A stretch of 64,000 bases of DNA from a bacterium (lineage in GTDB: Bacteria; Fidelibacterota; Fidelibacteria; Fidelibacterales; Fidelibacteraceae), in the NCBI GenBank assembly GCA_963676395.1, contig OY781066.1, forward strand, positions 2,271,626 through 2,335,625, read 5' to 3'. The position numbers were made by a program, and so were the translations under genes. The notes beneath the pieces were generated by a model. That model saw only the letters and a program-made list of their open reading frames with translations, did no database searches and was not told where the DNA came from. Shown one piece after another: positions 57,945 through 58,820 of this stretch; within the stretch, counting starts at the first letter, position 1, and the number at the start of each line of letters is the position of its first letter.

Positions 57945-58103
57945 TATATATGACTGAATTATATACGATTGCAGGTGATAAGTTTGTGTGTTTGGCGAAA
58001 AAACATTCAGATTATAATGAGGTTTTACTTATATATTGCATGAATACCTTGACAAAGGGCTTCTATTGCCCTATATTACGCAGCCTTGAGAATAGGATAA
58101 CAT

Positions 58104-58179
58104 CGCGGAGTGGAGTCCCGATTGATTCGGGAGTAGCTCGCTGAGCTCATATCCGTCAGCTGACGGACGCAGGTTCAAG
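58104..58179 (+). pseudogene. Degenerate tRNA-fMet copy A with two palindromic replacements
   Basis: CGCGGAGTGGAG-[TCCCGATTGATTCGGGA]-GTAGCTCG..GCTCATA-[TCCGTCAGCTGACGGA]-CGCAGGTTCAAG. Confidence 0.85.
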
Positions 58180-58213
58180 ACATGTTGACAGGACACAAGG
58201 CAAAAAATGACAT

Positions 58214-58286
58214 CGCGGAGTGGAGCAGTTGGTAGCTCGTTGGGCTCATAACCCAAAGGTCACAGGTTCAAGTCCTGTCTCCGCTA
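58214..58286 (+). tRNA. Initiator tRNA-fMet (CAT)
   Basis: C1:U72 mismatch, anticodon stem TTGGG/CCCAA with three G-C pairs, CTCATAA loop, GGTTCAAGTCC T arm. Confidence 0.95.
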
Positions 58287-58292
58287 CTAAAG

Positions 58293-58320
58293 AAACAGAG
58301 TCTCTATGAGACTCTGTTTT
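58293..58320 (+). terminator. Terminator after tRNA-fMet
   Basis: AAACAGAGTCTC-TAT-GAGACTCTGTTTT. Confidence 0.75.
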
Positions 58321-58349
58321 GATTTATAAAGAAATATTATTAAAATAAA

Positions 58350-58395
58350 TAGCTCCTTGGGCTCATATCCGTCAGCTGACGGACACAGGTTCAAG
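58350..58395 (+). repeat. Partial tRNA-fMet copy B with palindrome
   Basis: TAGCTCCTTGGGCTCATA-[TCCGTCAGCTGACGGA]-CACAGGTTCAAG. Confidence 0.85.
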
Positions 58396-58472
58396 GGTTT
58401 AATGTTTCGATTACTAAAAAATAGAGTATACTTTTACTTTGTTTTGGCTTTAGATCAAATTAAGGGACGAAT

Positions 58473-58736
58473 ATGATTTATACCGTTTATGTATTATACT
58501 CAAAAAAGTATGATAAAATTTATATCGGATATACATCAGATTTAATTAAAAGATTTTATTCTCATAATAAACTAGGTATAAAAGGGTTTACTGCTAAGTA
58601 TAGGCCTTGGGAAGTCATATATACCGAAATATTTAATATTAAAGCTGATGCGTTGAAAAGAGAAAAAGAATTAAAAACAAGCAGGGGTAGGGCATTTATT
58701 AAAGAACAGCTCCTTGGGCTCATATCCGTCAGCTGA
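58473..58736 (+). CDS. Stand-alone GIY-YIG nuclease
   Basis: YTVYVL, IYIGYTSDL..R...HN, T.KYRPW, A.KRE..LKT..GR; AGGGA RBS. Confidence 0.92.
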   Translation: MIYTVYVLYSKKYDKIYIGYTSDLIKRFYSHNKLGIKGFTAKYRPWEVIYTEIFNIKADALKREKELKTSRGRAFIKEQLLGLISVS

Positions 58737-58820
58737 CGGACACAGGTTCAAGTCCTGTCGAATTTTATTTCGATGAATATCGGGGCTACAAAGAAACAGG
58801 GTTCTTTCGAACTCTGTTTT
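58708..58820 (+). repeat. Partial tRNA-fMet copy C with palindromes, trailer and terminator; overlaps the GIY-YIG 3' end
   Basis: AGCTCCTTGGGCTCATA-[TCCGTCAGCTGACGGA]-CACAGGTTCAAGTCCTGTC-[insert]-GCTACAAAGAAACAG...CTCTGTTTT. Confidence 0.85.

Follow-up and report, generated by a model that had tools for sequence, protein, structure and literature searches.

Within the stretch analyzed here, 64,000 nucleotides (nt) of GCA_963676395.1 contig OY781066.1 (positions 2,271,626–2,335,625, forward; hereafter the window, whose own positions serve as coordinates), the initiator tRNA gene is surrounded by three partial copies of itself, A, B and C, and a small gene for a GIY-YIG nuclease lies between copies B and C. 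In our best explanation, a small cassette with neither promoter nor integrase resides on tRNA(CAU) genes, and this locus contains one intact unit of it and two that have decayed. The intact gene, tRNA-fMet, occupies 58214–58286 on the plus strand; it scores 66.3 bits against the Rfam tRNA model (gathering score 29), and ARAGORN assigns it the anticodon CAT. It has C1 opposite A72 and, through GGG/CCC, three G:C pairs in the anticodon stem, which we take to be the marks of an initiator tRNA. Three CAT tRNAs occur genome-wide, and the gene at 58214–58286 is the sole one of initiator type; the remaining two lack these features and have no adjacent cassette.

The original prediction had described an intact tRNA-fMet with three degenerate copies around it, the same 10 nt swapped for one and the same palindrome in each copy, and a small GIY-YIG gene between two of them, and every one of these features lies where it had been placed. 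The exchanged segment is tRNA nt 38–47, ACCCAAAGGT, which comprises the 3′ strand of the anticodon stem and the variable loop. Directly after CTCATA in each copy it is replaced by TCCGTC-AGCT-GACGGA (TCCGTCAGCTGACGGA), at 58152–58167 (palindrome 1), 58368–58383 (palindrome 2) and 58725–58740 (palindrome 3), none of which is assigned a strand. Three matches in the window compare with 0.00 expected from 100 shuffles, and the 2,335,625-base genome contains no other exact copy. The palindrome is thus confined to this tRNA/GIY-YIG locus rather than randomly distributed, an outcome the original prediction had left to be checked.

Copy A (58100–58179, plus strand) begins with the 4-nt leader ACAT and runs from nt 1 of tRNA-fMet to about nt 59, ending in the T loop after GGTTCAAG. 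Apart from two hairpin replacements it departs from the intact gene at three single positions (CTGAG for TTGGG; GCAGG for ACAGG). Its second hairpin, TCCCGA-TTGAT-TCGGGA (TCCCGATTGATTCGGGA, 58116–58132, plus strand), takes the place of the D-loop sequence CAGTTG as had been proposed, and hairpins of the same class, TCCCG..CGGGA, occupy the same D-loop position at loci L094, L121, L154 and L156. Copy C (58708–58822, plus strand) consists of tRNA nt ~21–37, the palindrome, an intact T arm, a 24-nt insert, GCTAC, the trailer and a copy of the terminator. The insert carries a small hairpin, CGAT-GAAT-ATCG (CGATGAATATCG, 58771–58782), and replaces the acceptor-strand TCC; its counterpart in L003/L015 is CCCGAT-GAAG-ATCGGG. 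Together with the retained trailer and a terminator-like hairpin at 58793–58820, this agrees with the earlier description of copy C.

Copy B (58351–58395, plus strand) contains tRNA nt ~21–37, the palindrome and nt 48–59, and shares a perfect 45-nt direct repeat with copy C (58351–58395 = 58708–58752). The stretch that follows it up to the ATG of the nuclease gene (58396–58472, plus strand) comprises a tRNA 3′ end, a trailer terminator and a spacer, all in decayed form, and matches the stretch that relatives have between the intact tRNA and the nuclease gene. Because of this composition we read copy B as the tail of a first cassette whose open reading frame (ORF) has been deleted; the bases just 5′ of copy B resemble the last codons of the ORF. 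The nuclease gene itself (58473–58736, plus strand) encodes 87 amino acids (aa). Copy C and palindrome 3 supply its last nine codons and its TGA stop, the stop being inside the palindrome; in close relatives the ORF stops at a TAG that belongs to the D-loop sequence GGTAGCTCG of the tRNA.

Upstream of copy A and the tRNA lies a promoter-like site on the plus strand (58049–58077; TTGACA, a 17-nt spacer, TATATT) that agrees with the consensus at 11 of 12 positions; on the strength of this consensus match, it likely drives the whole array. The tRNA trailer forms a hairpin followed by a run of T (58293–58320, plus strand), which by its sequence and its alignment with the trailers of relatives we read as a terminator. 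The nuclease gene is downstream of it, so expression would need read-through; among the 23 sequencing runs listed, none was an RNA data set that contains the locus. An Rfam scan of 57800–59100 at E values up to 10 gave nothing above gathering score except tRNA, the match to BTnc060 (23.8 vs 228.9 bits) being due to chance. We therefore discarded a group I intron in the tRNA gene, as the scan contained no intron family and only 77 nt separate copy B from the ORF. An integrase-borne island at a tRNA gene was likewise rejected: the seven ORFs of at least 120 aa searched in 52000–64000 are housekeeping genes, and none belongs to an integrase or transposase family (an eighth, of 171 aa, which overlaps the second of two downstream NAGPA genes, was left out). 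To that extent, within about 6 kb, the unit is integrase-free, as originally proposed.

It could be argued that the additional tRNA pieces are mis-joined repeats, as the tRNA and the 45-nt repeat break the contig graph of short reads and no single listed piece spans the whole stretch. We give this practically no credence. Contigs from run X1 match 57950–58239, 58366–58752 and 58723–58950 without difference (58290–58365 is uncovered, and run X23 contributed no matching contig), which yields copy A with the start of the tRNA, and the palindrome of copy B through the GIY-YIG gene to copy C, and the graph breaks nowhere except at the tRNA and the 45-nt repeat. Run X1 contains 85% of sampled words and is possibly the source sample, hence not independent; the same architecture, however, is found in independent genomes from several phyla. 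The possibility of an artefact, raised with the original prediction, can thus be set aside: the finding is real.

The encoded protein matches PF01541 over residues 3–71 as a single domain (56.1 bits, cut-off 22.6; E 4.5e-15). A structure model with a mean predicted local distance difference test (pLDDT) value of 90.5 places strands at 3–10, 15–21 and 47–54, together with helices. Forty homologues with 56–77% identity to the window protein come from across phyla, and 17 columns are invariant in 40 sequences: Y6, S10, K15, Y17, I18, G19, T21, R27, H31, N32, R44, P45, W46, R63, E64, K68 and R73. Among them, Y6, Y17, R27, H31, N32 and E64 presumably have catalytic roles. Judged by its modeled fold and these conserved catalytic-type residues, the protein is a member of the GIY-YIG nuclease superfamily. 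Its nearest solved relatives by sequence are EF2693 (E 1.1e-7) and BH0048 (E 1.4e-6), both UPF0213 proteins, followed by SLX1 from 2.3e-4; by fold they are BH0048 and the Slx1 nuclease domain, the latter with template-modeling scores of 0.62–0.70 on the query, and I-TevI is also matched. Profile search and model agree on a bare catalytic domain of about 85 aa with no second or separate DNA-binding domain. A search of 2.9 million viral contigs returned one distant relative, at 35% identity.

A protein-similarity scan with one genome per species found 354 stretches that encode relatives of this nuclease, and the counts that follow are from the best 80 loci; like all counts here across genomes and loci they are inflated by kinship. 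In 68 of these 80 loci, which were chosen by protein similarity alone, a tRNA-Met(CAT) gene lies directly upstream on the same strand. Of the other 12, several are truncated where a contig stops, and one carries tRNA-Asn instead. The loci come from many families of Bacteroidota and from Balneolia, Neomarinimicrobiota and Cloacimonadota, and in 16 of them the nuclease gene is matched in tandem, two or more times and up to four. The window protein groups with Bacteroidota sequences in a protein tree, with weak support, a placement that hints at transfer between phyla. The proposal that the unit targets tRNA genes thus stands as far as the association is concerned. That the intact tRNA gene is itself the target is doubtful, given that this gene survives next to the cassette and that the protein lacks a separate domain for DNA binding. 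The original prediction had also allowed for an editing unit, for which we found no evidence.

The hairpin, too, recurs along with the gene. We surveyed the 190 nt downstream of 93 gene copies, chosen again by protein alone, and control windows 600 nt further downstream. A hairpin of the form TCC-N3-loop-N3′-GGA is present in 83 of the 93 (80 perfect, three with one mismatch) and in 5 of 82 controls; among the ten copies that lack it, five are visibly decayed versions. The stems are TCCGCC (57), TCCGTC (22), TCCGGC (2), TCCGTT (1) and TCCGCT (1), and the loops measure 4 nt in 69 cases and 3 nt in 14, with variable sequence. Since each stem pairs with a complementary 3′ arm, the three one-mismatch copies excepted, the changes in the stem are compensatory. 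The flank 5′ of the hairpin ends in CATA in 68 of 83, the same number in which the hairpin starts at one fixed tRNA position, after nt 37, and the base that follows is C in 81 of 83.

Conservation of the stem sequence suggests that a conserved factor recognizes it, and the paired changes and variable loop length would favor a folded single strand over a dimer site on duplex DNA. When folded as single-stranded DNA, the patched copies are predicted to form the hairpins with z of about −2.0 to −2.6 (four folds); the intact tRNA gives −3.6. Three roles had been suggested for the palindromes, namely recognition, immunity and repair scar. Recognition fits best, whereas neither an arbitrary immunity patch nor a random repair scar would be expected to keep its stem through compensatory T:A to C:G changes across phyla while the loop varies in length.

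Among the closer relatives, 41 genomes that are 65–100% complete, the tRNA was found in 34 with the 1-kb region as query, and an orthologue of the nuclease (at least 72% identity) in six. In five other members of the genus the nuclease gene is likewise present, and behind it lies a partial copy of the tRNA that contains TCCGCCAGC(Y)GGCGGA. The motif ATA-hairpin-C occurs in all six orthologue-bearing genomes and in 3 of the 35 others (G007, G020 and G012), at one to three copies per genome, and a reversed-pattern control matched none of the 41. Taken with the survey of gene copies, this bears out the expected association between palindrome, nuclease gene and tRNA fragment. Comparison with relatives whose tRNA-fMet locus is empty reveals presence/absence polymorphism at this one locus within the genus: one cassette is found in G002, G019 and G006, two in tandem in G005, and remnants alone in G007, G013, G015 and G020, those of G007 and G020 being gene-less. 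In G009 and G014 the downstream side has no cassette, and in G009 the NAGPA gene comes directly after the terminator.

Gene-less units of another form also occur in relatives (L008:1640-1700, L005:1790-1880 and L004:440-545). Downstream of the tRNA these have a conserved one, GGCTTCCGTCTTCGTCC..GGGACTACGCCGGACAAG, ending in CATA and the palindrome, as well as GTCATCC..GGATCT hairpins between tRNA and fragment.

Polymorphism of this kind, together with the GIY-YIG fold and a patch that begins at one fixed tRNA position, could be the work of a classical free-standing homing endonuclease. Such an enzyme would cut the duplex intact tRNA(CAU) gene of cassette-free genomes, which would then be repaired from the cassette copy, and the palindrome would be an immunity patch. 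Phage Seg-type enzymes, such as SegB in a tRNA cluster, provide a precedent. Nevertheless, homing seems unlikely to us. In 68 of 80 loci the cassette still has an intact and presumably cleavable tRNA as its neighbor, which would leave the host without immunity, and the protein is a catalytic domain without the module that would read a long duplex site. An immunity patch, moreover, would have no need to preserve a single stem sequence by compensatory changes in different phyla, and hairpins of this class also replace the variable arm of a tRNA-Leu fragment, where the left flank is different.

The cassette has sisters at other RNA genes. Scanning the whole genome gave four GIY-YIG matches, three in small genes and one in a 620-aa open frame that is, by its size, probably uvrC. 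One of the small genes encodes 81 aa and begins 185 nt after the transfer-messenger RNA (tmRNA) gene (L214:682-927; G000:C1:1767481-1767726); TTCGCTCGAAG stands directly after the tmRNA 3′ end and again directly after this ORF. The tmRNA-linked clade is also found in G001 and, as two tandem units, in G003. The third gene, of 120 aa, lies on the minus strand (L215:222-584; G000:C1:1348221-1348583) between inverted elements of the form GTCATCCTGAA..(inner hairpin)..TTCAGGATCTC. There are about seven such elements in the genome, one of them 112 nt after tRNA-Asp and two with a TCCGTC..GAC(G/T)GA inner hairpin. The arrangement is the repeat-gene-repeat layout of the Ssn nucleases (PMC11893778), which we discuss below. 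NCBIfam has no family for the window protein or the tmRNA-linked paralogue, and for the third paralogue it gave one sub-threshold match, to a group I intron endonuclease model (21.6 vs 56.05 bits).

In relatives, the paralogue gene lies beside tRNA-Asp, tRNA-Ser or tmRNA in 12 of 14 loci, often in tandem and each time with a hairpin of its own: TCCCGAC-GGA-GTCGGGA in place of the T arm in tRNA-Asp copies, and small T-loop hairpins in tRNA-Ser copies. The protein tree contains a separate Ser clade (support 99/99), a tmRNA clade with one unplaced row (100/99) and a clade with seven of the eight Asp rows (99/99), and the CAU rows group together with the Asn rows, at weak support (87/85). Mapped on this tree, the target label changes seven times (minimum six) against a mean of 19.4 in shuffles, none of 200 of which was as low; kin share labels, and the result therefore shows clustering, not co-evolution.

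Hairpins related to the palindrome also occur away from the tRNA-fMet locus. The pattern TCCGYC-N4-GRCGGA is found 11 times in the genome and never in six Markov controls, and eight of the 11 lie off the tRNA locus, some within other hairpin repeats. Generic TCC..GGA hairpins are unenriched (53 vs 37–48 in five Markov controls). Outside the window, some 10 kb away from the genuine tRNA-Leu(UAA) gene, we also noted a lone fragment of that tRNA which spans the anticodon loop to the T arm (L216:264-322; G000:C1:2012063-2012121). Its variable-arm hairpin is replaced by TCCGCTAGCTGGCGGA with the left flank CCCTCG, a terminator-like hairpin follows, and tblastn located no GIY-YIG gene nearby.

These dispersed copies, the tRNA-Leu fragment with no nuclease gene nearby and the existence of gene-less arrays are what might be expected if the hairpins were autonomous miniature palindromic insertions, of the type of Rickettsia palindromic elements or mitochondrial GC clusters, that colonize dead tRNA copies next to a nuclease that is a mere neighbor. 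We find this quite improbable. The motif with its tRNA flank is confined to the cassette locus at one to three copies per genome and is present in six of six orthologue-bearing genomes; hairpin type and tRNA target are particular to each nuclease clade, and the generic hairpins show no enrichment.

The partial tRNA copies are of two kinds, upstream and downstream. Copy-A-type units, which consist of a leader, the 5′ part of the tRNA and a hairpin, often TCCCG..CGGGA in the D loop, are common on the upstream side of the intact gene, where they stand alone or in tandem; the type also occurs in relatives and in Bacteroidota. A pattern scan of the whole collection for the motif, in which about 70 chance matches are expected, gave 80 readable loci among the matches listed; a nuclease gene is present at 38, tRNA-Met(CAT) at 47 and either at 59, and some of the 21 loci with neither, several of them in other phyla, may be chance.

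The boundaries of these copies were surveyed in 190 patched copies from 118 loci. Upstream copies keep 10–14 nt on the 3′ side of the hairpin in 44 of 57 cases and never reach the tRNA 3′ end. In downstream copies, tRNA homology on the 5′ side of the hairpin extends over 8–12 nt in 71 of 133 and over 18–19 nt in 23 and never reaches nt 1, and 76 of the 133 run on to the tRNA 3′ end. The core shared by both kinds is thus the hairpin with about 10 nt on each side. Breakpoints lie at landmarks of the tRNA, in the D loop, at the start of the anticodon stem and in the T loop. Symmetrical cutting on the two sides of the palindrome would account for such boundaries, as might preferential breakage in the loops.

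That downstream copies so often retain the T arm and 3′ acceptor strand could mean that the module serves its host, either in repair at a heavily transcribed tRNA gene or by providing a processing or decoy RNA co-transcribed with tRNA-fMet. Strong purifying selection (56–77% identity across phyla, 17 invariant columns) and a constant position behind the promoter and terminator of the tRNA would suit a domesticated module of this kind. We hold it to be improbable, given that the orthologue is patchy (6 of 41 related genomes), identical units form tandem arrays, and decayed or gene-less copies are frequent. Hairpins also occur in 5′ leader copies with no nuclease gene nearby, the T-loop insertions disrupt the tRNA-like fold, and apart from the tRNA itself there is no Rfam match.

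We lean, with modest assurance, toward a selfish promoterless cassette whose nuclease recognizes its own hairpin in single-stranded DNA, in the manner of Ssn enzymes and their SRM hairpins, and which spreads and is amplified by recombination on tRNA homology. The unit would consist of the gene for a single-domain GIY-YIG protein of about 85 aa and a partial copy of the neighboring tRNA in which nt 38–47 are replaced by TCCG(Y)C, a 3–4-nt loop and G(R)CGGA. Read-through from the tRNA promoter would give a low level of nuclease, which would bind the hairpin wherever the DNA becomes single-stranded, for example in replication, heavy transcription or DNA uptake. By analogy with the action of Ssn on SRM hairpins, it would then nick about 10 nt away, within tRNA-homologous sequence. 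Host homologous recombination would repair the broken end on another tRNA copy, with near-universal tRNA sequence as the homology arm, and the outcome could be tandem amplification, partial copies on either side of the intact gene, or placement at an unoccupied tRNA(CAU) gene. The intact tRNA would be spared because it has no hairpin. We thus infer recognition of the hairpin, cleavage of single-stranded DNA and its position, expression by read-through and spread by recombination, with cleavage and mobility suggested by the presence/absence polymorphism, the tandem arrays and the likeness to Ssn.

The model for this reading is SsnA of Neisseria meningitidis, a 94-aa single-domain GIY-YIG protein that binds hairpin repeats flanking its own gene and whose cleavage is restricted to single-stranded DNA and falls upstream of the hairpin (Chenal et al. 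2025, PMC11893778). We liken the cassette nuclease to Ssn proteins by size, domain and layout, although its nearest solved sequences are UPF0213. Both are single-domain GIY-YIG proteins of about 90 aa (87 here; about 90–100 in Ssn proteins, PMC11893778), and in both cases hairpin repeats bracket the gene, here palindromes 2 and 3, with a hairpin 3′ of 83 of 93 homologous copies. The stem is of TCC..GGA type in both and has an oriented flank, ..GTCAT|TCCCGCG.. in the NTS and ..CTCATA|TCCGCC.. here (PMC11893778). We had considered whether CTCATA stands in for the Neisseria GTCAT flank, a "TCAT mimicry" that we now leave as a remark, as the hairpin class also follows CTGTTA (tRNA-Asn, L092) and CCCTCG (tRNA-Leu). 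Unlike the Ssn repeats, the hairpin here is embedded at a fixed position in a partial tRNA copy, it numbers one to three per genome where Ssn repeats number in the hundreds, and the published SRM search pattern (PMC11893778) is unmatched at the three patched sites. Chenal et al. (2025, PMC11893778) themselves remark on the insertion sequence (IS)-like layout NTS-ssnA-NTS, and the word tRNA is absent from their main text.

Several points weigh against the selfish, Ssn-like cassette. The link between nuclease and hairpin is one of co-occurrence and analogy. The published SRM pattern finds no match at the patched sites or in the hairpins that surround the third GIY-YIG gene, and its 1 + 1 matches genome-wide are at chance level. 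The motif is not dispersed as it is in Neisseria, occurring one to three times per genome and only in the cassette, and the protein is nearest by sequence to UPF0213 proteins. Arrival of the cassette in a naive genome is a difficulty, as the recipient would have no nuclease, and with a single distant relative among the viral contigs no vector is evident. The strong constraint on the 17 invariant columns across phyla would also fit a host-beneficial role. The rough symmetry of the copy boundaries may be a by-product of tRNA structure, given that the boundaries lie at tRNA landmarks, and kinship among the genomes inflates all counts that we cite.

It is tempting to speculate further that the cassette nuclease both recognizes and cuts a self-contained module, namely the hairpin and the roughly 10 nt that flank it on either side. 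If each strand were cut some 10–12 nt 5′ of the palindrome, this would account for both the start of downstream copies (8–12 nt before it) and the end of upstream copies (10–14 nt after it). The cassettes might then be mobile DNA of a new kind that cuts at a hairpin and is repaired on tRNA homology, adding a third route based on hairpins to those of HUH transposases (IS200/IS605, REP/RAYT) and integron attC, with clades specialized on tRNA(CAU), tRNA-Asn, tRNA-Asp, tRNA-Ser and tmRNA. This extension is tentative, and we regard it as possible but rather doubtful.

Several known systems share parts of this arrangement. The Seg homing endonucleases of T-even phages, with SegB in the T4 tRNA cluster as an example, are larger, have DNA-binding regions and cut the duplex cassette-free allele. 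Like the cassette, they are intron-less GIY-YIG genes beside tRNA genes, present or absent between relatives, and thought to spread by recombinational repair; unlike Seg enzymes, the cassette nuclease clade is essentially missing from viral contigs, its single match there being distant. We know of no cognate hairpin and no partial target duplication for the Seg enzymes. REP/RAYT (REPIN) pairs and IS200/IS605 use HUH/Y1 transposases rather than GIY-YIG enzymes, and their repeats are dispersed and are not known to lie in tRNA copies. What they would have in common with the cassette is a small nuclease gene flanked by its own hairpins, a putative action on folded single-stranded DNA and gene-less units that possibly depend on the enzyme in trans; both are raised in the Discussion of PMC11893778. 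Integron attC cassettes resemble ours in pairing a promoterless single gene with an imperfect palindrome that folds when single-stranded, and in forming tandem arrays behind one resident promoter. In contrast to them, our cassettes have no integrase, encode their enzyme themselves and would insert by tRNA homology instead of site-specific recombination.

The GIY-YIG domain of Slx1 is close to the cassette nuclease by sequence and fold and is specific for DNA structure rather than sequence, but Slx1 also has a RING/zinc domain and a partner, Slx4. For UPF0213 (YhbQ-type) proteins we found no established function in the literature by title or abstract, and neither these nor Slx1 are known to be tied to tRNA genes or hairpins. 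Our literature search, whose scope was outside subscription journals, found no description of a tRNA-linked GIY-YIG cassette. The cassettes therefore appear to be a widespread and undescribed family of tRNA-resident mini-nucleases.

If this reading is correct, the initiator tRNA gene, among the most conserved of bacterial genes, hosts a minimal selfish element made of a nuclease of about 85 residues and a 16-base hairpin, and such an element would be widespread in Bacteroidota and allied phyla. It would tie Ssn single-strand nucleases to a concrete genomic life style that ranges from dispersed repeats to tRNA-embedded cassettes, and it would account for many of the "pseudo-tRNA" fragments and tandem tRNA-like arrays in annotations. 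The cassettes would also supply natural nuclease-hairpin pairs of defined specificity, which may serve for cutting single-stranded DNA at chosen sites. With a small protein and short oligonucleotides, the system is directly testable.

Three further observations concern related arrays and the surroundings of the locus. In run X3, a wastewater metagenome, one contig at 2.9x coverage, with 40 letters on its shorter side, joins the end of the copy-C T arm (58759) back to the start of the ORF (58473), a backward step of 287. Such a joint would be expected from a related cassette in tandem or circular form, and the evidence is too weak for use. A record of Pedobacter alpinus (L140, 701–1492) contains a gene-less array of six motif copies, mostly spaced by about 98 nt, beside tRNA-Glu, with no nuclease gene within 700 nt. 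In the window, the neighbors of the cassette are a geranylgeranyl-reductase-like protein, a DinG-like helicase/exonuclease, AMMECR1, an FGE-sulfatase-domain protein, LeuRS and two NAGPA paralogues. The last two, tandem phosphodiester glycosidase genes (PF09992) on the minus strand at 59083–59925 and 59941–60840, lie directly downstream of the cassette.

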